Below are positions 33,219 to 64,000 of a DNA stretch of 64,000 nt, in pieces. The notes under the pieces were generated by a model. That model saw nothing but the letters and a program-made list of their open reading frames with translations, did no database searches and had not been told where the DNA came from. Made by a program: the position numbers and the translations under genes. The DNA lies in the NCBI GenBank assembly GCA_025356665.1, contig JANXRV010000094.1, positions 6,265-70,264 of the forward strand, given 5' to 3'. Within the stretch, counting starts at the first letter, position 1, and each line of letters starts with the position of its first letter. This DNA comes from Pseudomonadota bacterium (lineage in GTDB: Bacteria > Pseudomonadota > Gammaproteobacteria > Burkholderiales > SG8-39).

Positions 33219-34634
33219 TCAGGCCTCTTCGGCCCGATTGCCCTTGTCTTCCAGACCGAGCTCCTGAATTTTGCGCGTAATGGTGTTGCGGCCGATGCCC
33301 AGCAAATTGGCCGCTTCAATGCGCCTCCCGCCGGTATGTGCCAGCGCCTTGGCGATAAGCACTTTTTCAAATTTTCGCGACAACGAATCCATGATGCCCG
33401 ACTCGCCGCGGGCGAGGGCTTTTTCCGCCTCGCGCGACAGCGCGCCAATCCAATCAGAACCCTGCACACGCGAAGATTCTTCACGCAACTCTGGCGGCAG
33501 ATCGTTGATTTCTATCGACTGCCCCGCCGCCATCACCGTCAGCCAGTGACAGACGTTCTCAAGCTGGCGCACGTTGCCCGGAAAGTCATGTGCGCTCAGA
33601 TAATTCATTGCCGCTTCGGTAAGACGCTTGGCCTCCATGCCAAGATCTTTCGCGCTCTTCGCCAGGAAATGACGCGCCAGCAGCGGAATATCCTCGCGCC
33701 GTTCGCGCAGTGACGGCAGGCGCAGACGAATGACGTTCAAGCGATGATAAAGGTCCTCGCGAAATTGTCCGTCCTTGACCCGCGCCTCAAGATTCTGGTG
33801 GGTCGCGGCAATGACACGCACATTGGACTTGATAGGTTGATGACCGCCGACGCGGTAAAAATTGCCGTCTGAAAGAACCCGTAACAGCCGCGTCTGCAAA
33901 TCAGGTGGCATGTCGCCGATCTCATCGAGAAACAGCGTCCCGCCTTCGGCCTGCTCAAAACGGCCACGGCGCATGGCTTGAGCACCGGTGAACGCGCCGC
34001 GCTCGTGACCAAACAGCTCGGACTCAAGCAGGTCCTTGGGCATTGCCGCGGTGTTGATTGCGACAAACGGCTTGGACGCGCGCGCACTATGTCGGTGCAG
34101 AGCTTGGGCGACCAACTCTTTGCCAGAACCCGATTCGCCGGTGATCAGCACCGTCGCATTGGATTGGGAAAGCCGACCGATGGCCCGAAACACTTCCTGC
34201 ATCGAAGGCGCCTGGCCGAGAATTTCCGGCGAGGTCTGAGCAACCTCAGCCACCTCGTCCTCGCGCATCGATTCATCGATTGCGCGCCTGATCAACTCGA
34301 CCGCCTGGTCGACATCGAAGGGTTTGGGCAGGTACTCAAACGCCCCGCCCTGAAACGCCGCCACCGCCGACTCCAGATCAGAATACGCGGTCATGATAAT
34401 CACCGGCAGCGTCGGATATCTTTGCTTGATGTTTTGCAACAAATCCAGGCCGGAAGTGCCCGGCATGCGAATGTCCGAAACGAGCACCTGCGGCGCCCCC
34501 GAGGCGAGCGCATCGATTGCATCCTGGGCAAGGGCGAAAGTCTTGTAGGGAATGCCCTCGCGCGTCAGCGCTTTTTCGAACACCCAGCGTATGGACTTGT
34601 CGTCATCAACGACCCAGACTGGTTTCATATTCAT
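33219..34634 (-). CDS. ntrC: Nitrogen regulation protein NR(I), sigma-54-dependent response regulator
   Basis: Receiver domain ([13 protein letters not shown]...SDIRMPG), AAA+ sigma-54 interaction domain ([22 protein letters not shown]) and a C-terminal Fis-type HTH. Confidence 0.9.
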
Positions 34635-34655: not shown

Positions 34656-35738
34656 TCAGGGGAAAGGCAGCACGATGCGAAAACACGTTCTGCCAGGCTG
34701 GCTCTCCGCTTCGATGACGCCGTGATGATGCTGCACGAAGGTTTGCGCCAGCGTGAGGCCCAGGCCGGTCCCGCCTTCCCGACCGGAAACGAGCGGATAG
34801 AAGACTCGATCACGGATTTCAGGAGGAATTCCCGGCCCATCATCGATCACTTGCAATTCTAATGCCAGCCGATAACGCTTCCTCGCCAGCGTGACCTGCC
34901 GCACGACACGCGTGCGCAGCTCAATCACCCCGGAGCCCGAAAGTTGCGGCCACGTGGCCGGTTGTGCTGCAATCGCCTGTGCTGCGTTACGTGCGATATT
35001 CAGGATGACTTGAATCAGCTGTTCACGATCTCCCTGGATCTCCGGCAGGCTGGTGTCATAGTTACGACGAATCCGGATGCCGTTTGGAAACTCGGCCAGG
35101 ATCAGGCTGCGCACCCGCTCGCATACCTCGTGAATGTTGAGCGGGCCGATATGCGGCGGCCGGTGCGGCGTGAGCATGCGATCCATCAAGGACTGCAGCC
35201 GGTCCGCCTCCTTGATGATCACCTGGGTGTATTCGCGCAGTTCGGGGCGATCGAGCTCGCGTTCAAGCAACTGTGCCGAACCGCGCAAGCCGCCCAGCGG
35301 ATTCTTGATCTCGTGCGCCAGATTCCGGATCAGCTCGCGATTGGCCAGATGCTGGTTGAGCTGCTGCTCCTCGCGCTCGATACGCAGCTGCTGCTCAATC
35401 GGGCGCAACTCCATGATCAACTGAAAAGACCCGTTGTCCACCGGCGTCACAATGCAGTTGAGCGCAAGCGGCTCCAGTCCGGCGCGTCCGAGAATGCGCT
35501 CCTGCTCGGCAAACCCCCAACCGCTACCAATCGACTGACGCAGCTTCGCCTCGAATTCACCGGCATCTGTAAAGAGGTCAAGGAAAGGCTGGCCGAGAAT
35601 GCTCTTCTGGCCAACGTCAAAGAGCGCCTCGGCCGCAGGATTGAGGTATTGGACCGACAGACGCCCGTCTAGCGTCACCACCGCCGTGGCGAGCAGATCG
35701 AGTCCCGCATAGGACGGAGCAAGCATGCGCTTCAGCAA
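34656..35738 (-). CDS. ntrB: Nitrogen regulation sensor histidine kinase NR(II)
   Basis: PAS-like N-terminus, H-box LAHEIKNPLGGLRGSAQLL and an ATPase domain (DDGPGIP, GGTGLGL). It sits directly upstream of ntrC. Confidence 0.9.
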   Translation of the reverse strand: MLKRMLAPSYAGLDLLATAVVTLDGRLSVQYLNPAAEALFDVGQKSILGQPFLDLFTDAGEFEAKLRQSIGSGWGFAEQERILGRAGLEPLALNCIVTPVDNGSFQLIMELRPIEQQLRIEREEQQLNQHLANRELIRNLAHEIKNPLGGLRGSAQLLERELDRPELREYTQVIIKEADRLQSLMDRMLTPHRPPHIGPLNIHEVCERVRSLILAEFPNGIRIRRNYDTSLPEIQGDREQLIQVILNIARNAAQAIAAQPATWPQLSGSGVIELRTRVVRQVTLARKRYRLALELQVIDDGPGIPPEIRDRVFYPLVSGREGGTGLGLTLAQTFVQHHHGVIEAESQPGRTCFRIVLPFP

Positions 35739-36406: not shown

Positions 36407-37822
36407 TTACAGACTGTAATACATATCAAACTCGATCGGATGCGTGGTCATGCGGAAACGCGTGACCTCGTCCATCTTGAGTGTGATGTAGGCATCGAGC
36501 ATATCGTCGGAGAACACACCACCCTTGGTCAGGAAAGCGCGATCTTTGTCGAGTTCGGCCAGAGCCTGATCGAGCGAATGGCAGACGGTCGGAACCTTTG
36601 CCGCTTCTTCCGGCGGCAGGTGATACAAGTCCTTGTCGATCGGCTCGCCCGGATGGATTTTGTTCTGCACACCATCGAGGCCTGCCATCAACAACGCGGC
36701 AAACGCCATGTAGGGGTTGGCAGTGGGATCCGGGAAACGAACCTCTACACGACGCCCCTTGGGATCCGTGACATAGGGAATACGGCAAGCCGCCGAACGA
36801 TTGCGCGCAGAGTAAGCCAGGTTGATCGGCGCCTCGAAGCCCGGAACCAGGCGCTTGTAGCTGTTGGTACCCGGGTTGGTGATGGCGTTGAGCGCTTTGG
36901 CGTGCTTGATCACACCTCCGATGTAATACAGCGCGAAATCCGACAGCCCTGCATAACCGTCGCCGGCAAACAGGTTTTTGCCGTCCTTCCATACCGACTG
37001 GTGCACGTGCATGCCCGAACCATTGTCACCCACAACCGGCTTGGGCATGAAAGTGGCGGTCTTGCCATAGGACGCGGCAACCATGTGGACCGTGTACTTT
37101 AGAATCTGGTTCCAGTCGGCACGTTTTACCAGGCTGTTGAAACGCGTGCCGATTTCGCACTGGCCGGCCGTGGCGACTTCGTGGTGATGCACCTCGACTT
37201 CAACGCCCTGCGCTTCGAGCGCAAGCGACATCGCGTTACGGATGTCCTGCAGCGTATCGGTCGGCGGAACGGGGAAGTAACCGCCTTTTACCGGGGCGCG
37301 GTGCGCCATGTTGCCGCCGTCGTACTCGATGCCGCTCGACCAGGGCGCCTCTTCGGAACTGATTTTCACGAAGGATCCGGACATGTCCGCGGCCCAGGTG
37401 ACGGAATCAAAAATGAAAAATTCCGGCTCGGGGCCAAAGTAAGCCACATCGCCCAGTCCGCTGGACTTGAGATAAGCCTCGGCACGCTTGGCAAGCGAGC
37501 GCGGATCGCGGTCGTACCCTTTGCCGGTGGACGGCTCGATCACATCGCAAGTGATGTTAAGCGTGGTTTCATCGGTGAACGGATCGATGCGCGCCGAATC
37601 CGGATCCGGGTACAGCAGCATGTCTGAAGCTTCGATGCCCTTCCAGCCGGCGATCGATGAGCCGTCGAAGGCATGGCCGCTGTCGAACTTGTCCTGGGTA
37701 AATTGCTTGGAGGGCACCTGAACGTGTTGCTCCTTGCCCCGGGTGTCGGTGAATCGGATATCAACGAACTTGACTTCCTGATCCTTGATCATCTTCAGTA
37801 CATCGGCGGCAGACAATGCCAT
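36407..37822 (-). CDS. glnA: Glutamine synthetase type I
   Basis: 471 aa with canonical GSI motifs ([15 protein letters not shown], the adenylylation-loop region NLY-type, [10 protein letters not shown]). Confidence 0.95.
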
Positions 37823-37982: not shown

Positions 37983-38046
37983 TCGTCAAAAACAGGGGCA
38001 ATCATTGTGCCACAAGCCTGCATGCTGAATTAGCTCCCAATTTACC

Positions 38047-38093
38047 GCACCATTATGGTGCTCTTGTGTTGAATAATGCAATATTACGGTGCG
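38047..38093. promoter_or_regulatory. Tandem NtrC-type enhancer sites
   Basis: GCACCATTATGGTGC (38047-38061) is a perfect palindrome matching TGCACC-N5-GGTGCA. TGCAATATTACGGTGCG (38077-38093) is a weaker copy. The centres are 31 bp apart, about -97 and -128 relative to the predicted glnA start site. Confidence 0.5.
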
Positions 38094-38155
38094 GACGTGG
38101 ACAGTCGCACCATACAGGTTCATTTTTACAACCTACAGAAAGACTCAAGTTTTTT

Positions 38156-48033: not shown

Positions 48034-50847
48034 ATGGACGAGACCACCCGCATCCTGATCGACGCCGACAAAGTGCTTGCGGTGGTTACCGCCGTGGCCA
48101 AAGAAGCGCGTCCGCACGTCGCGCTGCACGCCACGCTCGACAGCTCGCTGGAAAAAGAACTGGGGCTCGATAGCCTGGCGCGCGTCGAGCTGGTGCTGCG
48201 CCTGGAAAAGGAGTTCGGCGCCAGCCTGCCCGAACAGGCGCTGGCAAGCAGCGAATCAGCGCGCGACCTACTTCGCTTCCTGTTCGCCTCGGTCGGCCAT
48301 GCGCCGCGCGCCGCCGACACCCGTGTCGCCAGCCTGGTGCAGGAGGGCGGCGTGCGCCCGCCCTCGGAGACGCAGGCGCGCACCCTGGTCGAGGCGCTGG
48401 AGTACCACGTCGAGCACCAGCCCGACCGCCTGACGGTGTTCATGTACGAGGAGCGCGAGGAGTTCCCGCTCAGCTACCGCGCGCTCTGGGACGGCGCCGC
48501 CGGCTATGCCGCGCGGCTCGCCGACGCCGGCCTGCGGCCGGGACAAATGGCGGCGATCATGCTGCCCACCTGCAAGGAGTACCTCTACGCCTTTTACGGC
48601 GTGCTGCTGGCCGGCGGCGTGCCGGTTCCGCTGTACCCGCCGGCGCGGCTGACGACCATCGAAGACCACATGAAGCGCCACGTCGGCATACTGCAAAGCG
48701 CCGGCGCGGTGATGATGATCACCATTGCCGAGGCGCGGCCGCTCGCCTACCTGTTGCGCGCCCAGGTCGACTCGCTGCAAAAGGTGCTGGTGCCGGCCGA
48801 CCTCGCCGGCCCGCCTGACGCCAACTTCATTGCCGCGCGCGGCAAGCCCGGCGACACCGGCTTTTTGCAATACACCTCGGGTAGCACCGGCAATCCCAAG
48901 GGTGTGGTGCTGTCGCACGCCAACCTCATGGCCAACGTGCGCGCCATGGGCGCGGCGGTCAATACCAACCGCGAGGACGTGTTCGTCAGCTGGCTGCCGC
49001 TCTACCACGACCTCGGCCTGATCGGCGCCAACTTCGCCTCGCTGGTGCTGGGCTTCCCGACGGTGCTGATGTCCCCGCTCGCCTTCCTGTCGCGGCCCTC
49101 GAGCTGGATGCGCGCCATCCACCGCCACCGCGGCACCCTCTCCGGCGGGCCGAATTTTTCGTTCGAGCTGTGCCTGCGCCGTATTCCAGACGAGGAAATG
49201 CAGGGCATAGACTTGTCGAGCTGGCGCTTTGCCTTTAACGCCGCCGAGCCGGTGAGCCCGGACACCATCGTCGCCTTCGAAAAACACTTTGGCCGCTACG
49301 GCCTGCGCAAGAACTGCCTGTCGCCCTCGTATGGCCTCGCAGAATCCTCGGTCGGCGTGGCGATCACCACGCCGGGCACGCCCTGGCGCGCCGACCGCCT
49401 CGACCGCGAGCGCTTCACGCGCAGCGGCGAGGCGGTGCCGGCGCCCCCCGACGACGCGTCGCCGCTGCGGGTGATCGGTTGCGGTACGCCGATTCCCGGC
49501 CATGACCTGCGCGTGGTTGATGCGGCGGGCCTCGAGCTGCCCGACCGCCAGGAGGGGCAACTGCAGTTTCGCGGCCCCTCCTCCACCTCGGGCTATTACC
49601 GCAACCCGCAGGCGACGCGCACCCTGTTCGACGGTGACTGGGTCAACACCGGCGACCGCGCCTACCTGTCGGACGGCATCCTGTTTATCACCGGGCGCGA
49701 GAAAGACATCATTATCCGTGGCGGCCGCAACATCAGTCCCTATGAGCTCGAGCAAGCGGTGAGCGACCTCGCCGGCATCCGCCGCGGCTGCGTCGCGGTG
49801 TTCGGCAGCAACGACCCTGCCGCCGGCACCGAACGCGTGGTGGTGCTGGCAGAAATGCGCGACAAGGACAGCACCCGCCACGATGACTTGAAGCGCATGA
49901 TCAACGAGCTCGCGCTGCGCCTGATCGGTGCGCCGGCCGATGACATCGTGCTCGCACCCGCCGGTACCGTGCCCAAGACCTCAAGCGGCAAAATCCGCCG
50001 CGTCGCGGCGCGTGAATTCTACGAGCGCGGCCCCACCGCGGTGAAACGCCACGCGGTATGGCTGCAGTTCGCGCGCCTGCTGCTCGCCGGCGCCGCGCCG
50101 CAACTGCGCCGCGGACTGCGCGCCTTCGGCGGTGTGTTGTTCGCGCTGCGCGCCTACCTGGCGCTCGCCGCGCTGCTGCCGCTGGCGTTTTTCGCCGCGC
50201 TGCTGCTGCCGGTGAAACCGTGCTGGAACACCGGCCGCATGGTGGCCAGGCTGTTCCTGAAATTTTCCGGTATCGCGGTCGCGGTGCGCGGCCTCGAGCA
50301 CCTGCACGCGGGCAAGACCGTCGCCCTTGCGGTCAATCACACCAGCTACCTTGACGCGCTGGTGCTGTTGTCCATACTGGAATACCGTGGCTACGCCTTT
50401 GTCGCCAAACGCGAGTTCGAAAGCAATATGCTCATGCGCACTCTGCTCGAGGGCTTTGGCACGCACTTTGTCGAGCGCTTCGACGTCGCCAAAAGCGCGG
50501 AACACGCCGGCGACCTGACCACCGCCGCCAAGCGCGGCGTCTCGCTGATCGTGTTTCCCGAGGGCACGCTGGTGCGCAATTCAGGACTCATGGCGTTTCG
50601 CACCGGCGCTTTCCAGGCCGTGGCCGAGGCCGGCATCGCGGTGGTGCCGGTCGCGCTGCGCGGCCTGCGCTCGGTGCTGCGCGACGGCACCTGGTACCTG
50701 CGCCGCGCCCCGGTGACCGTGACCATAGGCGCGCCGCTCCTGCCCGAGGGCAGCGACTGGGCCGCGGCGGTGAAGCTGCGCGACGCGGTGCGCGCCGAAA
50801 TCCTCAAGTCCTGCGGCGAACCCGACCTTGCCGGGGGCAAACACTAG
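48034..50847 (+). CDS. Tri-domain fusion: phosphopantetheine carrier domain, fatty-acyl-AMP ligase, TM segment and PlsC-type acyltransferase
   Basis: Carrier motif LGLDSLARVEL. Adenylation motifs LQYTSGSTGNPKGVVLSH, WLPLYHDLGLI, TGDRAY, GREKDIIIRGGRNISP and PKTSSGKIRR. A hydrophobic stretch follows at ~aa 690-740. LPLAT motifs are NHTSYLDALV (HX4D) and FPEGT. Confidence 0.8.
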   Translation: MDETTRILIDADKVLAVVTAVAKEARPHVALHATLDSSLEKELGLDSLARVELVLRLEKEFGASLPEQALASSESARDLLRFLFASVGHAPRAADTRVASLVQEGGVRPPSETQARTLVEALEYHVEHQPDRLTVFMYEEREEFPLSYRALWDGAAGYAARLADAGLRPGQMAAIMLPTCKEYLYAFYGVLLAGGVPVPLYPPARLTTIEDHMKRHVGILQSAGAVMMITIAEARPLAYLLRAQVDSLQKVLVPADLAGPPDANFIAARGKPGDTGFLQYTSGSTGNPKGVVLSHANLMANVRAMGAAVNTNREDVFVSWLPLYHDLGLIGANFASLVLGFPTVLMSPLAFLSRPSSWMRAIHRHRGTLSGGPNFSFELCLRRIPDEEMQGIDLSSWRFAFNAAEPVSPDTIVAFEKHFGRYGLRKNCLSPSYGLAESSVGVAITTPGTPWRADRLDRERFTRSGEAVPAPPDDASPLRVIGCGTPIPGHDLRVVDAAGLELPDRQEGQLQFRGPSSTSGYYRNPQATRTLFDGDWVNTGDRAYLSDGILFITGREKDIIIRGGRNISPYELEQAVSDLAGIRRGCVAVFGSNDPAAGTERVVVLAEMRDKDSTRHDDLKRMINELALRLIGAPADDIVLAPAGTVPKTSSGKIRRVAAREFYERGPTAVKRHAVWLQFARLLLAGAAPQLRRGLRAFGGVLFALRAYLALAALLPLAFFAALLLPVKPCWNTGRMVARLFLKFSGIAVAVRGLEHLHAGKTVALAVNHTSYLDALVLLSILEYRGYAFVAKREFESNMLMRTLLEGFGTHFVERFDVAKSAEHAGDLTTAAKRGVSLIVFPEGTLVRNSGLMAFRTGAFQAVAEAGIAVVPVALRGLRSVLRDGTWYLRRAPVTVTIGAPLLPEGSDWAAAVKLRDAVRAEILKSCGEPDLAGGKH

Positions 50848-50916: not shown

Positions 50917-52854
50917 CTAAGCGCCGGCAAGGCGTACGCGCAAGGCCCGCAGCGAGCCCAGAATCAGCCGTCCCACCGAACTTTCTTCCGCCGTCACTTT
51001 TTCCACGCTGTCAGGCTTGTCAACCTTCTGTTGCAGCAGCAACTTGGGCTGCGCCTTGTATTTCTGGAATTGCGCCATCGCGGCGGCAACGTGCTGCTGC
51101 AAGGTCGGCAGCTTCAACGGTTTGTTCAGGAAGCGGAAAATCTGCGCCTGGTTGATCAACTCGATCACCAGATCCGAGTCCGAGGCGGCGGTCATCGCGA
51201 TGGTAAGAATCTGCGGATGTTCGCGCTTGAGCATCTTGAACAGCGTACGGTTGTCCTGCTGGCTGCCCTCGATGTCGGCCACAAGGACGGCGACCGATTC
51301 GTCGCGCAATACGTCGAGCGCACTCAGCAGGTCCGGCGCGTGCAGTATGCGATATTGCGTTCCAAACAAGTCGCGCGCGGCCAGATAGATTTCCCGGTCG
51401 TCATCAACGATCAGCACCGCCTCGCCGGGCTTCGCGCCGCCAACCACCGCCGCCGGCGCGTCCTCGAGCGCAAGGCCGATTGCCGCCGCGTCCGACAGCA
51501 GGGTACGGATTTCAGCCGTGTTCCAAGGCTTGTTGGCAAAGCGGTAGACCTCGCCTTCGTTGATCGAACCGATGATTGCCGCCAGATCGGAGTATCCGGT
51601 CAGCAGGATGCGCACGGTATTGGGCGAGGTCATCTTCGCCTTGGAGAGCAGCTCGGTGCCATTCATGTTGGGCATGCGCTGGTCGCTAACCAGGACGTGA
51701 AAATGCCGCTCCTTGAGCCACACCAGCGCCTGTGCCGCATCGGTCGTGACGTGCACGTCGTAATGCTGCTTGAACAGCAGCTTGAGCGCCGAAAGAATGC
51801 GCTCGTCGTCGTCGACAAACAGCACGCTGGGACGCACCGTCTGCGCGCCTGCCGCGACACCGGGCAGGGTGGTGCGCGCAGCAGAGGTGTCGATCTTGCG
51901 TGTCACCGAGGTAAAGTCGATTTTGCGTATCGCCCCCGGCGTCATCACCGTACGCAGCGGCAGCGGCGTCATATGCGTCATATGCGTCAGCTGCACGGTC
52001 TGATCCGGATCGGCGATGCCATCCCAGATCTCGCCGTCAAAAGCCGCATCCATGGCCCTGGCAAAAGCCTCCGCGTCAATGAACCGATCGACTGATTTGA
52101 CCGCCAGCGCCTTGAGCAACACCGCGTCGAACGCGCTGTGCAAATCAGGATTAACCTCGCTCGGCGGCACCGGCGGCGTATGCAGCACCGCGTGCATAAG
52201 CGCGCCGAGCGAGTCGCCGATGAACGGCTTGCGTCCGGTCAGCAATTCATACAGGGCGACACCGGCGGAAAAAATGTCCGCGCGGGCGTCGATGGCCTGC
52301 CCCTGAAACTGCTCGGGCGACATGTAACTGGGGGTGCCCAGGACCGTACCCATCTGCGTCAGTTTTAACGAGTCGATCTGGGCGATGCCAAAGTCGGACA
52401 CCTTGACGCGCCAATCGGTCGTCATCATCAGATTGGAGGGCTTGATATCACGGTGCACCACGCCTTGGCCGTGCGCAAAAAACAGCGCCCCCAGGATCTG
52501 CCCGACCAGCGGACGCGCCCGGTCGGCGGCCAGCGGCACGCCCGGCGTGAGGTATTCGTTCAGCCCGCGCCCGTCGACGAACTCCATGGCGATGTAGGCA
52601 TGCTCGCCATCTTCACCGTACTCGTACACGCTGACTATGTTCGGGTGCAGCAGCCGGCCGGCCGCCTGCGCTTCCCGCTTGAAACGATCGAGCAGGTCCT
52701 GCGCTTCGGCCGGATCGAGCAGGCGCTTGATCACCGTCTTTAGCGCCACCGGGCGCTGGATTACCGGGTCGAGGGCGCGGTAGACGACGCCCATGCCGCC
52801 GCGGCCCAACTCGCGCTCGATGGTGTATTTGCCGATTTTTTGCGGGAGGGTCAT
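50917..52854 (-). CDS. Hanks-type Ser/Thr protein kinase fused to two receiver (REC) domains
   Basis: Kinase motifs GRGGMGVVY, ALK, HRDIKPSN, DFGIA and SPEQ. REC1 has FVDDDERIL...VLVSDQRMP...LLTGY...NKPW. REC2 has IVDDDREIY...VLVADIEG...AMTAAS...NKPL. The start overlaps the upstream kinase stop (ATGA). Confidence 0.85.
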   Translation of the reverse strand: MTLPQKIGKYTIERELGRGGMGVVYRALDPVIQRPVALKTVIKRLLDPAEAQDLLDRFKREAQAAGRLLHPNIVSVYEYGEDGEHAYIAMEFVDGRGLNEYLTPGVPLAADRARPLVGQILGALFFAHGQGVVHRDIKPSNLMMTTDWRVKVSDFGIAQIDSLKLTQMGTVLGTPSYMSPEQFQGQAIDARADIFSAGVALYELLTGRKPFIGDSLGALMHAVLHTPPVPPSEVNPDLHSAFDAVLLKALAVKSVDRFIDAEAFARAMDAAFDGEIWDGIADPDQTVQLTHMTHMTPLPLRTVMTPGAIRKIDFTSVTRKIDTSAARTTLPGVAAGAQTVRPSVLFVDDDERILSALKLLFKQHYDVHVTTDAAQALVWLKERHFHVLVSDQRMPNMNGTELLSKAKMTSPNTVRILLTGYSDLAAIIGSINEGEVYRFANKPWNTAEIRTLLSDAAAIGLALEDAPAAVVGGAKPGEAVLIVDDDREIYLAARDLFGTQYRILHAPDLLSALDVLRDESVAVLVADIEGSQQDNRTLFKMLKREHPQILTIAMTAASDSDLVIELINQAQIFRFLNKPLKLPTLQQHVAAAMAQFQKYKAQPKLLLQQKVDKPDSVEKVTAEESSVGRLILGSLRALRVRLAGA

Positions 52855-54704
52855 GCGGCGAGCTGCACGGTTTTCGCCAGCTCGGCCTGCTGCGTGACAT
52901 CGGCGGGCAGCGTGATGGTAAAGCGCGTCCCCCGTCCGATCACCGAATCCACTTCAATACGGCCGCTGTGCTCGGCAATGATCTTGTAGGCAATCGACAA
53001 TCCCAGTCCGGTACCTTCGCCGACTTTTTTGGTCGTAAAGAACGGGTCGAATATTTTTGGCAACACCTCCGCGGGTATGCCGCTGCCGTTATCCTCTATT
53101 TCGACGCATACGCTGGCACCACGCAGCACCGTGCGCAGCGTAATGACGCCGTTGTCCCCGGTTGCCTGCGCTGCATTGGAGATCAGGTTGAGGAACACCT
53201 GGTTGATCTGCGACGGGGAGCCGGTGATGTGCGCATACGGCGCGAGTTCTTTCTTGATAATTTTGGTCTTGACCAGGTTCTTGGCAATGACCAGCGTGCT
53301 CTCAAGGCCTTCATTGAGGTCGAATCGCGCGGTTTTGGCGCGATCCGGGCGGCTGAAGTTTTTCAGGTTGAGCACGATTTCCGAAATCTGGTCGATGCCG
53401 TACAAGCCGTCCTTTACCAGGTTCGAAAGTTCGGCGGCGCCGTGGCCCTGCTCCGCTGCAAGGCAAAGATCCCGAACGCGCGCAAACTGCGCGGAAATCC
53501 TGTCCTCGGACGCCTCGCCCGAACTGAGCAGATCAAGCAGTTGGCGCGTTTCGACAGCCATCTCGGAGGCGTGCGGCAGTTGCTCTTCCAGCACCTCAAG
53601 CCCGCTGCGCACGTAGGCCAGCGGCGTATTGATTTCATGCGCCACCCCGGCAATCATCTGTCCGAGGGAGGACATTTTTTCCGACTGGATGAGCGCGCTC
53701 TCCGAGTCCTTGAGGTGCTGCAGCGCGTCAGCCAGTTCCGTCGTGCGCTCGGTCACGCGATGCTCAAGATTCTCGTTGACCGACGCAAGCTCGGCGTTCT
53801 TTCTCTGGATGAGCTGGTAACTGTGCGCCAGCCGCCAGGCCAGCCAGACCATCAGCGCGAGCACAATCGCCGAATAACCGATCAACAACGTACGGTAAAA
53901 GTTCGTCGCCTCGGTTATCTGCTGCTTTTCCGACTCGAGCGCCCGCTCAAGCGCGACCAGGCGCTGCTGCGTCGGCAGCGCGGCAATCTCGTTGAGGATG
54001 CCGTCTTCGATGGCTTTTTGCTTTTGCACGCTGCGAAACTTCTCTATCAGCGCGGTTACCGTGGGTCCGACATCGCCCGGAGAGGCGGCGACCTTGCCGC
54101 CAAGGTCGTTCAGGCTCGAATCAATGCGCGGCAACGCCGATGCGTCGTTGAGAAGGTTGTACTTGAGCGTTTCGGTGAGCAACTCGTTGATGCGCAGCCC
54201 GAGCGTGGAATACGACTCGGCCATTTGCACGCCCTTGGGGCCCTTTACCTGCGCCGCGTCACTCTGCAGTTCGCGCAATTGGGCCAAAAACTCCTGGCTC
54301 TCGTCGGTAACAAAGCGCAGCGACTCCTTGAGAATCTTGTTTTGTTCAGCAAAGCGCGTGGTGACCGCCTTTTTCTGTGCAAATACTTCAGCCAACCCGG
54401 CGGCGCCGTCGACCGCAGCGGACAACCCAAGGGCAGCGGCCGCCGCGCTCAGCTTGACGGTGGATTCGCGCACCCGATCAGCCGGCGCCTGGCCGGCGGC
54501 GTAGTTGCGGTTGATACCGGTCTTGGCACGCAGGGAATCAACCGTCCATTCCGCATCGAGGGCCTCCAACTCGCGCAAGTCGGCAATGAGCGCATCTTCG
54601 CGCAGGAATTGGGTGGCCTGGGTCTTGGCATAAAGAAACCAGAGCACTCCGGCAAGCGCCAGGACGAGGCCGAAAGTCGCCAGTTGGCGAAGTTTTTTCA
54701 TCAC
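52851..54704 (-). CDS. Membrane sensor histidine kinase with a large helical extracytoplasmic domain
   Basis: TM1 (FGLVLALAGVLWFLY), then ~270 aa rich in Ala/Leu/Glu/Gln, then TM2 (LLIGYSAIVLALMVWLAW). A coiled coil follows, then the H-box AGVAHEINTPLAYV and ATPase motifs (NLISNA, DNGSGIP, GTGLGLS). The GTG at 54704 is followed immediately by the ATG at 54701. Confidence 0.85.
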   Translation of the reverse strand: MMKKLRQLATFGLVLALAGVLWFLYAKTQATQFLREDALIADLRELEALDAEWTVDSLRAKTGINRNYAAGQAPADRVRESTVKLSAAAAALGLSAAVDGAAGLAEVFAQKKAVTTRFAEQNKILKESLRFVTDESQEFLAQLRELQSDAAQVKGPKGVQMAESYSTLGLRINELLTETLKYNLLNDASALPRIDSSLNDLGGKVAASPGDVGPTVTALIEKFRSVQKQKAIEDGILNEIAALPTQQRLVALERALESEKQQITEATNFYRTLLIGYSAIVLALMVWLAWRLAHSYQLIQRKNAELASVNENLEHRVTERTTELADALQHLKDSESALIQSEKMSSLGQMIAGVAHEINTPLAYVRSGLEVLEEQLPHASEMAVETRQLLDLLSSGEASEDRISAQFARVRDLCLAAEQGHGAAELSNLVKDGLYGIDQISEIVLNLKNFSRPDRAKTARFDLNEGLESTLVIAKNLVKTKIIKKELAPYAHITGSPSQINQVFLNLISNAAQATGDNGVITLRTVLRGASVCVEIEDNGSGIPAEVLPKIFDPFFTTKKVGEGTGLGLSIAYKIIAEHSGRIEVDSVIGRGTRFTITLPADVTQQAELAKTVQLAA

Positions 54705-54766
54705 GCTCCCTTTTTATGGCGCTCCCGCCACCGGCCGCCACGGCCGGGGGAACGGGGGCGAGTGAA

Positions 54767-55051
54767 TCAGGACTTGGGAGCAGGCGCCGAGGCCGGGGTC
54801 GCCGCAGCCAGTTTACCGCCGACTTTCAGGCAGGTTCCTTTGGCGACATAAGACCATTCGTCGGGAGCATTATCGGTTTTGGAGTAACCGGCACAGGCGT
54901 GCACCGAATTGGCGCACGAATTTTTACCGGCCTTGGATACACCGAAACATTTTTCCTTGGCGGCTTTGTCATCGGCCGCAGAGGCGGCAGAAACAACACC
55001 GAGGGCAAGAAAACCGGCAAGGGCGGAACGGATGATCAGATTGTGGTTCAT
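54767..55051 (-). CDS. Secreted DUF2282-type Cys-rich peptide (bufferin BufA1-like precursor)
   Basis: A Sec signal peptide ([25 protein letters not shown]) is followed by [47 protein letters not shown]. This is the four-Cys DUF2282 signature. RBS AAGGAA lies 8 nt upstream. Confidence 0.7.
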
Positions 55052-55188
55052 GGCTTTGGATTCCTTATTCGAGGACGAGGACGAGCTTGGTCAAGGATGA
55101 TTCCGACTTCTGACCGTTGGTCGCATCCGGCCGCCATGCATTACAAAACTTTATAAAAATAGAAATTTTTATTTCTGAATAACCACTT

Positions 55189-55210
55189 GTGCGTCAAATG
55201 TGCGTCAAAT
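55189..55210. repeat. Perfect 11-bp tandem duplication (GTGCGTCAAAT x2)
   Basis: 55189-55199 equals 55200-55210. On the minus strand this reads ATTTGACGCAC x2, i.e. two TTGACG hexamers one helical turn apart, ~140-160 nt upstream of the DUF2282 gene. Confidence 0.7.
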
Positions 55211-55281: not shown

Positions 55282-56166
55282 CTATAAACACTCGAAGGTG
55301 ATGGCGTCAGCCGCACCGCTACCCGGAACGCCCAGGCTGACGCTGCCACTGGCGCGCAACAGCACCGAATCGCGGCGGATCATGAGTTCCTGCTCCGACC
55401 CGATTGATACATAAGTGCCGTTGGTCGAATCGTCCACAAGAAAGAACTGCACGCCCCTGCGCTCTATCCGCGCGTGCTTGCGCGAGGCCGTTTTTTCGTG
55501 AATCACCAGTTCGCAGCCCTTGTCGCGCCCCAGCCACAGCGCCGCCTTGTCCGGGGGAAACTCCATGCCCGCGCCGCCATGCGTCAGCTTGAGCCGGCCC
55601 TGCGCCTGCGGCCCGCGTACCGGTCGGAACACCTGCGTTGATTCCAGATCGTCCTCCCAGACAACCTCGAAAATGCGCAACGCGTCCTGCTTGCCCTTGA
55701 CGTTAAGGGCGTCAAGGTCGCGGGTCGCTGCACGCAATTCCGGCCCAAGGGCATCTACGCTGGCGCCACTGGTGAGGATCTGCCTGCGGCGGGCGAGGCC
55801 GGCCAGCCGCGCCGCCGTATTCACCCCGTCGCCCCAGAAGTCGTTCTTGTCTTCAAGGACCTGGCCGTAGTGAAAGCCGATCTTGATCGCGAGGCTCACG
55901 CCCCCGGTGATTGGCAGCCCGTCCACCGCTGCCTGCATCGCCTTGGCCGCCTCACAGGCCGCATCTGCGCTGGGAAAGGCCGCCATAATCTCATCGCCGA
56001 TGGTCTTGACCACCGCTCCCTGCCAGAGCGACACGTGCCTTGCGAGAACCTCAAGACAGGCGTCGATGGCCTGCGCCGCCGGTTTGTCGCCCAGCAATTC
56101 GTACAACGCGGTGCTGTCAGTGACGTCAGCGAACAAAATCGCGCGCTGTTTGGAGACAAGCGTCAT
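55282..56166 (-). CDS. Class III adenylate/guanylate cyclase fused to a C-terminal FHA domain
   Basis: Cyclase motifs FADVTDSTALYE, KTIGDEIMAAF and WGDGVNTAARL. FHA motifs GRDKGCELVI...SRKHARI...DDSTNGTYV. Confidence 0.85.
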   Translation of the reverse strand: MTLVSKQRAILFADVTDSTALYELLGDKPAAQAIDACLEVLARHVSLWQGAVVKTIGDEIMAAFPSADAACEAAKAMQAAVDGLPITGGVSLAIKIGFHYGQVLEDKNDFWGDGVNTAARLAGLARRRQILTSGASVDALGPELRAATRDLDALNVKGKQDALRIFEVVWEDDLESTQVFRPVRGPQAQGRLKLTHGGAGMEFPPDKAALWLGRDKGCELVIHEKTASRKHARIERRGVQFFLVDDSTNGTYVSIGSEQELMIRRDSVLLRASGSVSLGVPGSGAADAITFECL

Positions 56167-56235: not shown

Positions 56236-56565
56236 CTATTTCATTTTTGAATAGGAGGTCGGCGCGAGCATGGAGTTTTCCACGCGCACAACGATCTGGC
56301 CGTCTTCCTCGGTTTTGGCACGCGCCTTGTGCCAGGCCGGATCGGCCGCAAACTTGTTCCACTTTTCCTCGCGCTCGGCGAGGCTCTTCCATTCAAGGAT
56401 GTAAGTCAGCTTGTTGTTGCAGTTGTCGCCGATGTAGTCGGTGAAAAACCCGACCTGGCGGATGCCGTGCTTTTTCCACATCTTGAGCGTGACATTGGCA
56501 AAGCGCGCGTTAAGCGCGGCCAGGCGGCCCGGAAGGGTATGGTAGATGCGCATTTCATAAATCAT
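56236..56565 (-). CDS. NIPSNAP-family protein
   Basis: 109 aa. MIYEMRIYHTLPGRLAALNARF...W...GIRQVGFF... is the typical NIPSNAP dimeric alpha-beta-barrel pattern. Confidence 0.7.
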   Translation of the reverse strand: MIYEMRIYHTLPGRLAALNARFANVTLKMWKKHGIRQVGFFTDYIGDNCNNKLTYILEWKSLAEREEKWNKFAADPAWHKARAKTEEDGQIVVRVENSMLAPTSYSKMK

Positions 56566-60014: not shown

Positions 60015-61352
60015 TCAGCCGCCCTGCTCGAGCAGATGCGCAAGCTTCGGATCCGCGGCCAATTGTGCGAGGTCCGCCTCTTCATCCACGTCCCAGCGTA
60101 CCGGCAGCTCCAGCCAGTCCCAGGCGAGTTCGCACAGCCGTTCACGCGTCTGCGCCATCACCTGCGGCGTGCTCCAGGCAATGCTCTCGAACAGGCGCGG
60201 ATCATGCCGGCGCAGGCCGATCAGGGCATAGCCGCCGTCTAGCGTCGGCACAAACACCGCATCGCGCCCAGCCGCCAGCGCCGCCAGCGCGGCAGTAATG
60301 TCGTCCACCGTGATTGACGGCACATCCGAACCGATGAGCAGCACGGCATCGGCCTCCCCCAGCGCGGCGCGCAGGGCGGCACTCATGCGCAAACCTATAT
60401 CGCCGTCCGCTTGCGCATGCAGGCTCACGCCCCATTCGGCCTGCGCCTGGGCAAAAAACGCATGCGTCACCCCGGGGGCACACCACAACTGCACCGCACC
60501 CGACAGGGCTTGCACGGCGGTCGCAATGCACTGCCGCGCCATGGCGCCGTAAAGACGCATCGCACCCTCTGCGCCCAATGCGGGGATCAGGCGCGTCTTG
60601 ACCTCGCCCGCCACCGGTGCCCGGGCGAACACCAGGATACGGGATGCGATTTTGCCACTGCGGTAAGCGCGCGCCAGGCGTCCGGGCGACACGCCGAAAA
60701 AGTATTGCAGGCGCAACCACCACATCAACACTACGGTGCGCAGCACGCCGTTTTTCTCCCAGCGACGCCCGGAAGTGGTGACCCTGTCGTAAAGGCAAAG
60801 CGGCGGCGAAATCCGATTTAGCCTGCCGCTGACGGCAATGTCCTCCATCAGCTCAATCGGCGGAAAGCCGCCGACCGCATCAAACGCCGCACGCGTCATG
60901 AACAAGGCCTGGTCGCCGGTGGCAATGCCGCTCCAGCGCGAGCGCAGGTTCATCATGCCGGCAACCACCCTGAGCAGGGGATGCCGCCCCTCAATGCGCA
61001 CATCAAAGCGGCCCCAGGCACGGCCGCTTGCCGCGAGCCCTGCGCGGATCAGCGCGTCCGCCTTTTCGGGCAGGCGCGTGTCGGCGTGAAGAAACAACAA
61101 TATGTCGCCCTGGGCCGCCGCCGTACCGGCGTTCATCTGGCTGGCGCGGCCGCGCGTAGCGACCAGCACCCGGTCTGCCGATCCGCGGGTAAGTTCAGCC
61201 GTGGCATCGCGGCTGCCGCCATCTACGACCAGCACTTCGCAGCCGCGCGCGCGAAAGTCGCGCAAGGCCGCCAGCATGCCGGGCACCATGGCCGCCTCGT
61301 CAAGGACCGGGACGATGATGGAAATCGGGGCCGCGCGGCTATTTCCCGGCAT
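60015..61352 (-). CDS. Apparent fusion of a family-2 glycosyltransferase (TIGR04283-like) and a DUF2064 transferase (TIGR04282-like)
   Basis: The ATG at 61352 gives MPGNSRAAPISIIVPVLDEA...LFLHADTRLP (GT2). The frame continues without a stop into SRILVFARAPVAGEVKTRL...IGSDVP...DGGYALIG (DUF2064). The first ~216 aa of track ORF 60015..62000 overlap the DUF547 gene out of frame and are not real. Confidence 0.7.
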   Translation of the reverse strand: MPGNSRAAPISIIVPVLDEAAMVPGMLAALRDFRARGCEVLVVDGGSRDATAELTRGSADRVLVATRGRASQMNAGTAAAQGDILLFLHADTRLPEKADALIRAGLAASGRAWGRFDVRIEGRHPLLRVVAGMMNLRSRWSGIATGDQALFMTRAAFDAVGGFPPIELMEDIAVSGRLNRISPPLCLYDRVTTSGRRWEKNGVLRTVVLMWWLRLQYFFGVSPGRLARAYRSGKIASRILVFARAPVAGEVKTRLIPALGAEGAMRLYGAMARQCIATAVQALSGAVQLWCAPGVTHAFFAQAQAEWGVSLHAQADGDIGLRMSAALRAALGEADAVLLIGSDVPSITVDDITAALAALAAGRDAVFVPTLDGGYALIGLRRHDPRLFESIAWSTPQVMAQTRERLCELAWDWLELPVRWDVDEEADLAQLAADPKLAHLLEQGG

Positions 61353-62157
61353 CGTTGAGCGACCAGTCATATTCGGCAAACGCCAGCATGGCCTGCTGCG
61401 CGCTGATGCGCCCTTGCTGCAGCGGGTCGTCGGTGAGCAGGCCGGCGTAGCGCCCAAAATACTGTTCGCGTGAGTTGATGCCCTTGAAGCCGCTTGTCCA
61501 GTCCTCTTTGTACCAGTCAAAAATTTTCGATACCACGAGCTTGTCGGCGGCGGCATCAAAGCGGTTGCGCGTGCGGTCGGAAAGAAAACGCCGCGCCTGC
61601 TCCTCGATTTGCGCCTCAAGGCGCGACGCCACGTACGCCTCCTCGCGCAGCATCGGGCAGCCGATCGACGCGCAATTGACGGCAAAATGCACGCGCGGTT
61701 CGTCGAACACGCCTTTCGCGCGCAACCTGCCGTGCTCGAGGCCGTCGAGCGAGGCTTCGGCGCCGAGCAGGCGGAAGAATTTGTCCTTCCAGGGATTGCC
61801 GAACACCGTGCCAAAATCGCGTATGGACTTGAGATCGGGATAACGGCCAAGCACTTTTTCGACGGTAAACGCGTTGTAGGCATTGATGAGAAAGGCCATC
61901 TGCTGCGCGCGGCTCCAGAGGCCGTACTCGGTCTCGTCGACCGCCGAGAGCGCGGCAAGATAAGTTTTGAGCGCGACCCGGTCGGCGGCAAACCCGGCAT
62001 AGCGCACCTGCGAGGCCTTGCCGCCGTCCAGCAGCACGATGTGCTTTTTCAGCAGGGCGTTCCAGGCGGCATGGGCATGGTCGAACTGCGCCTTCGCCTG
62101 CGACCAGACGAGCAGGCAAAACAAAGTCGCAAGCAACCGGCCGGCGATGCTTTTCAC
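61339..62157 (-). CDS. DUF547-domain protein with signal peptide
   Basis: The signal MKSIAGRLLATLFCLLVWSQAKA is followed by DUF547 hallmarks (AFLINAYNAFT, HFAVNCASIGCP, FDWY). Confidence 0.8.
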   Translation of the reverse strand: MKSIAGRLLATLFCLLVWSQAKAQFDHAHAAWNALLKKHIVLLDGGKASQVRYAGFAADRVALKTYLAALSAVDETEYGLWSRAQQMAFLINAYNAFTVEKVLGRYPDLKSIRDFGTVFGNPWKDKFFRLLGAEASLDGLEHGRLRAKGVFDEPRVHFAVNCASIGCPMLREEAYVASRLEAQIEEQARRFLSDRTRNRFDAAADKLVVSKIFDWYKEDWTSGFKGINSREQYFGRYAGLLTDDPLQQGRISAQQAMLAFAEYDWSLNDAGK

Positions 62158-62160
62158 GAC

Positions 62161-64000
62161 CTACCCGCGCATCCAGGCATTAAAACGGCCGACCCAGGCG
62201 AGCAGTTTTTGCGGCGCGTGAGCGCGTTTCCAGTTGCCCGCCGCGTATTTGTTCGCTTCGGCCATGGTCGGGTAGATGTGGATGGTGCCGAGGATCTTGT
62301 TCAAGCCGAGGCCGTGGCGCATCGCCAGCACATACTCCGCGATGAGGTCGCCGGCATGCTCGCCGGCGATGGTGACGCCGAGGATGCGGTCCTTGCCCGG
62401 CACGGTCAGCACCTTGACCAGCCCGTGCGCCTCTTCGTCGGCGATGGCGCGATCGAGGTCGTCGATGCCGTAAGTGGTCACCTCGCAGGCAATGCCTTTT
62501 TCCTTCGCCTCGGTTTCATTCAGGCCGACCCGCGCCACCTCGGGGTCGGTGAAAGTCGCCCAGGGAATGACGGAAAAATCGGCGCGAAATTTCTTGAACG
62601 ACCCGAACAGCCCGTTGACCGCGGCATACCAGGCGGTGTGCGCCGCGGTGTGGGTGAACTGGTAGGGGCCGGCGACATCGCCGCAGGCAAGGATGTTGGG
62701 GTAGATGGTCTGCATGTATTCGTTCACTTCGACGGTGCGCGCCTTGGTCACCGGAATGCCGAGGTCCTCAAGTCCATAGCCCGCGGTGTTGGCGACGCGG
62801 CCGACCGCGCACAACAGCGCGTCGAAGGCAATGCGCACTTCGCCGCCGTCGCTTTCGGCATAGAGGACTTTTTCACCGGCCTCGACGGCAAAGCGCACCG
62901 CCTTGTGCCCGACCAGCACCTCGACGCCCTCGTCGCGGAATTTCTGCATCACCATGGCGGAGAATTCCGCGTCTTCGCGCATCATCAGGCGCGGCAGCAT
63001 TTCCACCTGCGTGACCTTGCTGCCCAGCCGGGCAAAGCATTGCGTCAGCTCACAGCCAATCGGCCCGCCGCCCAGCACCAGCAGGCGCGCCGGCAACTCA
63101 CGCAGGTCCCAGACCGTGTCAGAGGTCAGGCAACCGACTTCTTCTATTCCAGGAATGGACGGCACAAAGGGGCGCGCGCCGGTGGCAATAACGATGGCGC
63201 GGCTGGTCAGGCGCCGCGTGACGCCATCGGCCTGTTTGATCTCGACCTCCCAGGGCGTGAGCATGCGCGCCTCGCCGGCGACGCACTCCACCCCCAGTTC
63301 GGTGTAGCGCGCCACCGAATCGTGCGGCTCGACCGTGCGCACCACGCGCTGCACGCGTTCCATGACATCGGCGAAATCGAAGGTCGCACCGGCCTGGGCG
63401 ATACCGTATTCCTTCGCCCTGCCGATTTGCGACAGCACGCGGGCGGTCTTGATCAGCGCCTTGGACGGCACACAGCCGGTGTTGAGGCAGTCGCCGCCCA
63501 TCTTGTGTTTTTCCACCAGCGTCACTTTGGCCTTGACCACGGCGGCGATGTAGGAGGTCACCAGCCCGGCCGAGCCGGCGCCTATCACCACCAGGTTGCG
63601 GTCAAAAGTCTTGGGCTTCAAGTGCGCCCAGCGCACGTAGACCCGCCGCACCTTGACCACGTCGACGATTTTCTTGGCGATCAGCGGAAACAGCCCGAGC
63701 AACACGAAGGAGCCAAGCAGCAGCGGCGAGAGAATGCCGCGCGGTGAATCGATTTGCGCCAGCTGCGTGCCGGCGTTCACAAAGACCAGCGTACCGGCCA
63801 GCATGCCAAGCTGGCTGACCCAGTAAAACGTCCAGGTTCGTATCGGCGTGAGGCCCATCACCAGGTTGATGACAAAAAACGGGAACGCCGGCACCAGCCG
63901 CAGCGTGAACAGATAAAATCCGCCCTCGCGCTCGACACCCTTGTTGATCGCGGCTATCTTGTCGCCGAATTTTTTCTGGATCAGGTCGCGAAACAGCAAA
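62161..64000 (-). CDS. DedA/TVP38-type membrane domain fused to a pyridine-nucleotide-disulfide oxidoreductase (mercuric/glutathione reductase-like); 5' end outside the window
   Basis: Membrane segment (LRLVPAFPFFVINLVMG...), then FAD motif VIGAGSAGL, redox disulfide GGDCLNTGCVPSK, NAD motif VLGGGPIGCE and a dimerisation domain (HIYPTMAE). The frame is open to the right edge. Confidence 0.8.
   Translation of the reverse strand, partial: LLFRDLIQKKFGDKIAAINKGVEREGGFYLFTLRLVPAFPFFVINLVMGLTPIRTWTFYWVSQLGMLAGTLVFVNAGTQLAQIDSPRGILSPLLLGSFVLLGLFPLIAKKIVDVVKVRRVYVRWAHLKPKTFDRNLVVIGAGSAGLVTSYIAAVVKAKVTLVEKHKMGGDCLNTGCVPSKALIKTARVLSQIGRAKEYGIAQAGATFDFADVMERVQRVVRTVEPHDSVARYTELGVECVAGEARMLTPWEVEIKQADGVTRRLTSRAIVIATGARPFVPSIPGIEEVGCLTSDTVWDLRELPARLLVLGGGPIGCELTQCFARLGSKVTQVEMLPRLMMREDAEFSAMVMQKFRDEGVEVLVGHKAVRFAVEAGEKVLYAESDGGEVRIAFDALLCAVGRVANTAGYGLEDLGIPVTKARTVEVNEYMQTIYPNILACGDVAGPYQFTHTAAHTAWYAAVNGLFGSFKKFRADFSVIPWATFTDPEVARVGLNETEAKEKGIACEVTTYGIDDLDRAIADEEAHGLVKVLTVPGKDRILGVTIAGEHAGDLIAEYVLAMRHGLGLNKILGTIHIYPTMAEANKYAAGNWKRAHAPQKLLAWVGRFNAWMRG

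Follow-up and report, generated by a model that had tools for sequence, protein, structure and literature searches.

A 64-kb stretch of chromosome from a bacterium of the Burkholderiales (contig JANXRV010000094.1, positions 6,265 to 70,264), called here the window, was analysed around a short gene that we term bufA*. By sequence, its product BufA* is a member of the DUF2282/BufA1 family, to which bufferin precursors belong, and yet it is no part of a bufABCD cluster. The gene is preceded by that of a nucleotidyl cyclase and followed by those of a sensor histidine kinase and a Ser/Thr kinase. In the order of transcription, the features of the locus are the following:

56236-56565, minus strand: NIPSNAP gene, upstream of the cyclase-FHA gene
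55282-56166, minus strand: nucleotidyl cyclase of class III that ends in an FHA (phospho-Thr-binding) domain; Pfam Guanylate_cyc E 7.8e-12, FHA E 1.4e-11
55189-55210, minus strand: perfect tandem direct repeat, two copies of ATTTGACGCAC, 45-65 nucleotides (nt) upstream of the promoter motif
55120-55145, minus strand: extracytoplasmic function (ECF) promoter motif of the sigmaF type, TGTAAT-N16-CGAC, a sequence match only, starting 94 nt before the bufA* ATG
54977-55051, minus strand: Sec-type signal peptide of BufA*, residues 1-25, judged by eye from the sequence
54767-54976, minus strand: BufA* core peptide and stop codon, residues 26-94, with the DUF2282 domain, the cysteines C35, C46, C53 and C74, and the motif KAGKNSC-x4-HACAGY
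54705-54766, minus strand: bufA*-kinase spacer of 62 nt, containing the GC-rich stem-loop CCGGCCG-UGG-CGGCCGG, which lacks a U tract, and GGGAG as ribosome-binding site of the kinase
52851-54704, minus strand: sensor histidine kinase; Pfam DAHL E 3.6e-29, HATPase_c E 2.4e-28, HisKA E 8.4e-08, and a hydropathy scan
50917-52854, minus strand: Hanks-type Ser/Thr kinase fused to two receiver domains (REC); Pfam Pkinase E 3.5e-49, Response_reg E 8.6e-32 (two stretches)

The initial annotation, made from the sequence alone, had read the flanking genes as a cyclase-FHA and a histidine kinase, which was borne out by Pfam. The spacer between the cyclase gene and bufA* measures 230 nt and is AT-rich. 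The one between bufA* and the kinase is short, as it is in all relatives (0-116 nt), which argues for co-transcription of the two genes. Its stem-loop was no more stable than shuffled sequences (z -0.84) and no attenuator is claimed, and a promoter and terminator scan of this spacer returned nothing useful. The start of the Hanks-kinase gene overlaps the stop of the histidine-kinase gene by 4 nt. The G+C content of this module is 57-64%, versus 60% for the window.

To our knowledge, bufferins have so far been known only as passive copper buffers. They are Sec-exported peptides made on the ribosome and modified after translation (RiPPs), in which the two central cysteines are converted to 5-thiooxazoles by an MNIO enzyme and its DUF2063 partner (PMC11626156). 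The outer cysteines form a disulfide, the signal peptide is dispensable for modification, and the precursors are cleaved at a site resembling A-S-A followed by A (PMC11626156). Copper binding by Buf1 needs the thiooxazoles (PMC11626156). According to their discoverers, bufferins form the largest RiPP family modified by MNIO enzymes. A survey of these enzymes found a sizeable proportion of Buf1 precursors without a neighbouring MNIO gene, which may be modified from another locus or remain unmodified, while 21 of the 4072 genomes with DUF2282 genes (about 0.5%) had no MNIO gene at all (PMC12452194). In the same survey, the stand-alone precursors were single-gene units or had flanks that were not conserved (PMC12452194). 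An orphan Buf1 precursor as such is therefore not new.

The bufA* open reading frame (ORF; 54767-55051, minus strand) starts with ATG, has an AAGGA ribosome-binding site 8-9 nt upstream of it, and encodes 94 amino acids (aa). The assignment of this peptide to DUF2282 by the initial annotation was upheld by the Pfam profile PF10048 (DUF2282/BufA1), which matched it with an E value of 3.6e-20 and a score of 72.1 bits (cut-off 22.4) over profile positions 1-52 of 53. A BufA-core profile hidden Markov model (HMM) gave an E value of 8.7e-26, and NCBIfam returned only a sub-threshold BufA2 match (23 bits against a cut-off of 60). Read by eye, the signal peptide has Arg8 in its n-region, a hydrophobic core and A-S-A at positions -3 to -1, with predicted cleavage between this A-S-A and the next Ala, after residue 25; a region of this type is kept throughout the clade described below. 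The cysteines are spaced C35-x10-C46-x6-C53-x20-C74. When aligned with BufA1 precursors of related loci that have an adjacent MNIO gene, in which the spacing is x10, then x6, x7 or x8 in the central loop, and x20, the peptide falls into the same register, as had been proposed from its sequence. Of a BufA1 precursor one would expect a small folded domain with a two-stranded sheet, a short helix and a CysI-CysIV disulfide; in the AlphaFold2 model computed from 33 sequences (mean pLDDT 61, pTM 0.38), four short strands were called and no helix, and a sequence search of the PDB found no solved structure matching the peptide. The exact protein occurs in other sequencing runs too. As far as the sequence tells, the ORF is thus a genuine BufA1-type, bufferin-like precursor.

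The modifying enzymes that would be expected beside such a precursor were not detected in the window. When canonical bufB, bufC and bufD (Methyloversatilis, L004) were used as tblastn queries against the 64 kb, only matches with E > 0.5 were obtained. Profile HMMs were built from 83 BufB, 70 BufC and 37 BufD sequences of related loci and run on all six frames of the window; the best E values were 1.6 for MNIO (BufB, DUF692/PF05114), 0.66 for BufC/DUF2063 and 0.04 (10 bits) for BufD/DoxX, which we count as none in each case. Pfam scans of 44 window proteins, namely the peptide and 43 other large ORFs, revealed no MNIO, no DUF2063 and no BufD-type DoxX, and likewise neither metal genes nor an ECF sigma factor. 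The statement of the initial annotation that no such partner lies in the 64 kb hence withstood all of these searches. The window contains no second DUF2282 gene, bufA* being the sole copy there, and neither AhpC nor homologs of the buf-linked sigma and anti-sigma factors (queries from L163 and L250) were found in it. The rest of the window is ordinary chromosome, with genes for the pyruvate dehydrogenase complex, typA, rpiA, phoU, argA, folD, prlC, ntrBC-glnA, transporters and a gamma-glutamyltranspeptidase.

Related loci (numbered here with the prefix L) were collected by genome scans with peptide patterns, by a kinase query, by a clade-specific DNA pattern, by protein search and by look-ups of exact proteins; most of the additional BufA* contexts come from these look-ups and are short metagenome contigs. 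Among the matches listed from the peptide-based scans (160 loci), all were canonical, with bufB directly downstream (about 100-500 nt), except for a few contigs that end early, and none of them carries the DAHL kinase. The kinase query, in turn, led to orthologs in the Burkholderiales. In the closest of these loci, L083, the kinase is 79% identical and is directly preceded by a peptide 75% identical to BufA*, and a divergent canonical bufA-bufB-bufC is also present. Synteny between the window and L083 does not extend beyond the three-gene module, which leaves no basis for tracing how the MNIO genes were lost or became separated.

A protein search recovered 17 distinct relatives that share KAGKN[S/A]C-x4-HACAGY. 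When 204 unique BufA cores were placed in a neighbour-joining tree, based on a short alignment, the 18 unique cores with this signature formed one clean monophyletic clade, BufA*; among 16 members of the clade, 27 alignment columns are invariant. The window peptide sits inside this clade, carries the signature and has the DAHL kinase 62 nt downstream. Relatives without the signature, for example P0035, have MNIO downstream. The lineage looks undescribed and it is rare, since a search for its DNA signature yielded 2 species genomes out of 185,579 and a single metagenome contig.

Wherever the context could be read, the DAHL kinase lay directly downstream of BufA* (12 of 12: the window, L083, L090, L163, L164-167, L250-252, L253, L254, L255/256, L257, L259 and L260). 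The BufA*-linked orthologs of the kinase show identities of 57-83%, and wherever the contig extends far enough, the histidine kinase is followed by the Hanks kinase-REC-REC gene. Five lineages have the cyclase-FHA gene next to the module: in the window and L259 it lies upstream and is co-directional, and in L163, L164-167 and L250/252 it lies downstream in convergent orientation. The outer flanks vary by lineage and include the cyclase, buf1 or buf2 clusters, AhpC, YCII and a cyclic-nucleotide-binding protein. In the kinase tree, also obtained by neighbour-joining on a short alignment, L090 was basal, followed by one clade of BufA*-linked kinases, in which the window groups with L083, and L163, L164 and L250 form the other branch, and by a second clade of Polaromonas and Ramlibacter kinases without BufA*. 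This tree mirrors the BufA* tree, which fits an old pairing with a single loss in Polaromonas/Ramlibacter. The suggestion of the initial annotation that the peptide had been recruited into a signalling context thereby gains stronger support, from constant pairing in a distinct clade and from co-diversification, than the window sequence had offered.

The ratio of non-synonymous to synonymous substitution (dN/dS) in the BufA* core was 0.03-0.2 where dS was not saturated. Against other lineages without an adjacent MNIO gene it was 0.06-0.09, window versus L164 and window versus L255 being among the pairs compared. The core is thus under strong purifying selection, also in lineages that lack a neighbouring MNIO gene, which indicates that the gene is functional in an MNIO-less setting.

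In five lineages, MNIO and DUF2063 genes adjoin the BufA* module, divergently in L083, L090 and L257 and co-directionally in L163 and L250. The order in the last two is sigma/anti-sigma, BufA1-MNIO-HvfC-DoxX, a six-Cys BufA2-like gene with a second MNIO-HvfC pair, and BufA*-kinase. For six lineages, no such genes were seen in the sequence at hand, which amounts to 64 kb for the window, 10 kb upstream for L164-167, and short contigs for L253, L255, L259 and L260. Two genomes of Polaromonas have a canonical bufABCD, and no BufA*, immediately upstream of the kinase. With these divergent, co-directional and Polaromonas arrangements, the kinase is tied to bufferin genes in three layouts. The residues of the signature are not peculiar to the clade when taken singly, as NSC, and likewise HACAGY, is also found in precursors beside an MNIO gene (L006, L177); none of them is therefore incompatible with modification.

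The six-Cys protein mentioned above (L163, 7718-8035; L250, 5127-5447) is secreted, has 105-106 aa, no Pfam match and an ECF motif of its own, and stands before the second MNIO-HvfC pair. Directly upstream of BufA*-kinase, it looks like a BufA2 (six-Cys) bufferin precursor by its sequence. In L090 (144-2829, minus strand), the bufferin genes divergent from BufA*-kinase have the atypical order bufB-bufC-bufA-bufD, with ECF motifs before bufB and before the internal bufA.

The upstream regions of the BufA* genes cannot otherwise be aligned, and they have in common TGTAA[T/G/C]-N16-CGAC or GTAACC-N16-CGAA. The latter form is exactly the sigmaF site of Caulobacter crescentus, mapped by 5' rapid amplification of cDNA ends (5'RACE) before the two DUF2282 operons of that organism (PMC3511200). 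The pattern TGTAA-N17/18-CGA[AC] has a background frequency of 0.007 per 300 nt. It precedes 12 of the 12 BufA* genes, at a distance of 70-135 nt, and, among the bufA genes of related loci, 89 of 195, where it lies 76-204 nt from the start. Almost all of its occurrences in L163, L250, L083 and L090 coincide with the beginning of a buf transcription unit. The motif is also present 50-80 nt before the kinase start in seven orthologs of the kinase that lack BufA* (L084, L085, L087, L088, L089, L091 and L093; L087 only with a relaxed pattern), and the kinase operon itself thus appears to belong to the bufferin ECF regulon. This suggests that the pair of DAHL kinase and Hanks kinase is a general, undescribed member of the bufferin or metal-stress regulon in Comamonadaceae-like Burkholderiales, as judged from predicted sites. 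In L163 and L250, the sigma and anti-sigma genes sit with the buf1 cluster; since the window holds no matching pair, it must be encoded elsewhere in the genome. The detachment from bufferin biology implied by the initial annotation does not hold: the partner genes are missing from the 64 kb, but the module has a bufferin-type ECF motif and abuts MNIO/DUF2063 genes in five lineages.

Beside the module, an AhpC/redoxin gene is found in two lineages, in L163 at 15296-15967 (minus strand), with its own ECF motif at 16023, and in L164 at 8941-9396, a hint in these sequences that the regulon may include thiol-redox enzymes. In the window, the tandem repeat of ATTTGACGCAC is followed, just upstream of the ECF motif, by the AT-rich palindrome AGAAATAAAAATTTCT at 55160-55175, in a genome of 60% GC. 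Neither repeat nor palindrome is conserved in the closest relative L083; they could be a candidate binding site for a regulator or an insertion scar. A second match to the motif in the window (38104-38130, minus strand, TGTAAA) falls in the control region of glnA and was taken as a chance occurrence. That region (37990-38130, minus strand) has an NtrC-like site, TGCACC-N5-GGTGCG, and a sigma-54 promoter, TGGCAC-N5-TTGC; glnA itself is at 36407-37822, and ntrB (34656-35738) and ntrC (33219-34634) lie downstream of it.

The histidine kinase has a first transmembrane helix (TM1) at residues 8-26, a periplasmic DAHL domain at 37-271 and a second transmembrane helix (TM2) at 272-290, followed by HisKA and HATPase_c. 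Because BufA* has a predicted signal peptide and the DAHL domain lies between two transmembrane helices, both are placed in the periplasm. The sensor domain contains no Cys and no His in any of the BufA*-linked kinases, and no Cys, His or Met column is conserved, so that it has no obvious means of its own to bind copper. Among solved structures, ZraS was the nearest to the kinase core (E 5.3e-31), and the sequence search of the PDB found nothing matching the DAHL domain. The sequence of the Hanks kinase-REC-REC protein shows the motifs VALK, HRD, DFG and SPE as well as the Asp residues of the receivers. Also as read from the sequence, the metal-binding Asp residues of the cyclase are retained, and so are GR, SxxH and NG in its FHA domain; the cyclase is likely the downstream partner of the Ser/Thr kinase. 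A chain from the histidine kinase to the receivers of the Ser/Thr kinase, and from there through phospho-Thr to the FHA-cyclase, is plausible.

As observations on these signalling genes, the Hanks-kinase/double-receiver protein has no DNA-binding output and is coupled translationally to the histidine kinase, an unusual hybrid of two-component and eukaryote-like signalling, and proteins of this architecture are found at 35-76% identity in many loci of Proteobacteria. In a single case, L255 (2-421, minus strand), the divergent upstream neighbour is a cyclic-nucleotide-binding (CAP-type) protein, which would fit a cyclic-nucleotide output of the cyclase.

We tentatively favour an explanation in which BufA* is a bufferin-regulon paralog of a rare clade, modified in trans and functionally coupled to the kinase as a metal reporter. 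Under metal (copper) stress, bufA* and the genes of the histidine kinase and the Ser/Thr kinase would be transcribed together through the ECF sigma factor of the bufferin regulon, whose gene would lie elsewhere in the genome. A canonical buf cluster, likewise elsewhere, would supply the MNIO/DUF2063 pair that turns C46 and C53 into thiooxazoles; the peptide would be exported by Sec and closed by a C35-C74 disulfide, and the mature form would bind copper in the periplasm. There it would act as the metal-reporting partner, either ligand or co-sensor, of the all-helical sensor domain that lacks Cys and His. The kinase would then phosphorylate the receiver domains of the Ser/Thr kinase, and the phospho-Thr mark set by the latter would be read by the FHA domain of the cyclase, with a cyclic nucleotide as output. 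These steps are not equally well supported: induction of the operon with the bufferin regulon comes first, modification in trans second, and the role of the peptide as metal reporter for DAHL last. The strongest form of the last step, namely that a RiPP-type metallophore has been turned into a dedicated periplasmic co-sensor whose copper-loaded or apo form is the physiological DAHL ligand, is possible, though we regard it as doubtful.

Several observations weigh against this explanation. With no gene for MNIO, DUF2063, DoxX or a buf-type ECF sigma or anti-sigma factor in 64 kb, the proposed modification in trans rests on priors and on the relatives. About 0.69-2 matches to the promoter motif are expected by chance per 64 kb and the promoter before bufA* is a predicted one, so the weight of the match comes from position and conservation. 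In L083, no cyclase-FHA gene was found within 6 kb of the module. Eight close kinase orthologs have no BufA* gene in front, which means that the sensor does not strictly need the peptide. Simple co-regulation, too, would be expected to yield conserved adjacency and a common promoter. Finally, the coupling between peptide and DAHL domain is putative, and the AlphaFold2 model of the peptide is only moderate (pLDDT 61).

The main rival is co-regulation alone. BufA* could be a co-regulated paralog, that is, an extra bufferin that is modified in trans and serves as a copper buffer only, next to a kinase that shares the ECF promoter, senses something else and does not interact with it. In this family, precursor genes in tandem or standing alone are frequent (PMC12452194), the kinase orthologs that lack BufA* keep the ECF motif and evidently work alone, and all the direct evidence, from motif and adjacency, concerns co-expression and not interaction. 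However, BufA* is a distinct clade with invariant residues of its own that occurs solely before this kinase, in all 12 contexts, and peptide and kinase have co-diversified while the outer flanks all changed. Nor is it expected of a redundant buffer that it should remain in one signalling operon or retain a clade signature at the dN/dS values given above, and the link of the kinase to bufferin genes in three layouts also speaks against this rival. This rival is a possibility to be reckoned with, though on the whole a somewhat unlikely one.

A second explanation, which we consider unlikely, would do without any MNIO action: BufA* would remain unmodified, as a disulfide-bonded periplasmic protein that is a ligand or modulator of the kinase or that binds metal weakly through C46, H51 and C53. 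The literature allows for unmodified stand-alone precursors (PMC12452194), no MNIO gene is visible by the module in 6 of the 11 informative lineages, including the 64 kb here and the 10 kb in L164, and substitutions typical of the clade adjoin the target cysteines (D replaced by S before CysII, and Q by Y after CAG). Yet each of the signature residues is also found in MNIO-adjacent precursors, and in five lineages MNIO/DUF2063 genes lie right beside the module, the core being equally conserved with or without them. Moreover, the ECF promoter implies that a bufferin regulon exists in the genome, genomes with DUF2282 but no MNIO amount to only about 0.5% (PMC12452194), and copper binding by Buf1 depends on the thiooxazoles (PMC11626156). 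It is from this low prior, from the relatives with adjacent enzymes and from the absence of any incompatible signature residue that modification in trans is derived, and between the modified and the unmodified peptide the priors favour the former.

That the gene is a decaying remnant of a bufferin cluster, with its enzymes deleted and no present function, is most improbable: the window does lack the modifying genes found beside the module in some relatives, but the ORF is intact with its ribosome-binding site, predicted signal peptide and all invariant residues, dN/dS against other MNIO-less lineages is low, the order cyclase-BufA*-kinase recurs in the independent lineage L259, and the exact protein is present in other sequencing runs.

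BufA* can be set against known systems of four kinds. With BufA1 of Caulobacter vibrioides (CCNA_03363, in buf1ABCD; PMC11626156), it shares the Pfam domain, the four-Cys register, by prediction the Sec signal, a length within 80-120 aa and an upstream sigmaF-type motif, but BufA* of the window has no bufB, bufC or bufD in 64 kb, belongs to a separate clade and is operonic with a sensor kinase. Like the stand-alone Buf1 precursors of the survey (PMC12452194), it is a DUF2282 gene without a genetically associated MNIO gene; unlike in these, its downstream flank (DAHL kinase, then Hanks kinase-REC-REC) is conserved. Our literature search found no paper linking DUF2282 to a DAHL kinase or to any two-component system.

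In envelope or metal two-component systems such as ZraP-ZraS and CpxP-CpxA, the first partner is a small periplasmic accessory protein. By analogy, BufA* is a small exported protein beside a sensor kinase and may be proposed as its modulator in the periplasm. It differs from ZraP and CpxP in that folds and families are unrelated, in that it would be a RiPP-type metallophore, and in that the output would be a Ser/Thr kinase and a cyclase, with no DNA-binding regulator. In Gram-positive bacteria, the secreted lantibiotics nisin (NisA, with NisK/NisR) and subtilin (SpaS, with SpaK) induce their own operons through a DNA-binding response regulator. The arrangement here resembles them in that a ribosomal peptide, here putatively modified, and a sensor kinase are encoded in one cluster, and the peptide might likewise be the signal of the kinase. 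In contrast to nisin and subtilin, BufA* would stay in the periplasm, transcription would be driven by an ECF sigma factor, and the relay would run to a Hanks kinase and an FHA-cyclase.

If BufA* is indeed a metal reporter coupled to the kinase, a bufferin would turn the periplasmic metal load into a signal passing from His-Asp phosphorelay to a Ser/Thr kinase and on to an FHA-cyclase with its cyclic nucleotide. For the first time, a bufferin would then have a role in signalling, and a DAHL domain an assigned ligand. Stand-alone precursors had been noted before without being explained, and in at least one lineage they are no random debris: they are the conserved first gene of a signalling operon that is, by inference, stress-induced. 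The locus outlines an unusual relay from an ECF sigma factor to a histidine kinase, a Hanks kinase with receivers and an FHA-cyclase, and yields hypotheses that can be tested on the modification of a distant precursor in trans, on bufferin co-sensing for a histidine kinase and on the signal for the uncharacterised DAHL domain. Should the peptide be only a co-regulated spare buffer, the finding would be an annotation of the bufferin regulon in Burkholderiales.

Three other genes of the window encode unusual fusions. Convergent with the signalling operon, the ORF at 48034-50847 (plus strand) codes for a 937-aa protein in which a carrier-protein domain is joined to an AMP-binding acyl ligase and an acyltransferase of the PlsC type. 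At 60015-62000 (minus strand) there is a glycosyltransferase-2/DUF2064 fusion, and its neighbour at 62161-63999 (minus strand), which runs off the window end, is a pyridine-nucleotide disulfide oxidoreductase fused to a VTT/DedA-type membrane domain.

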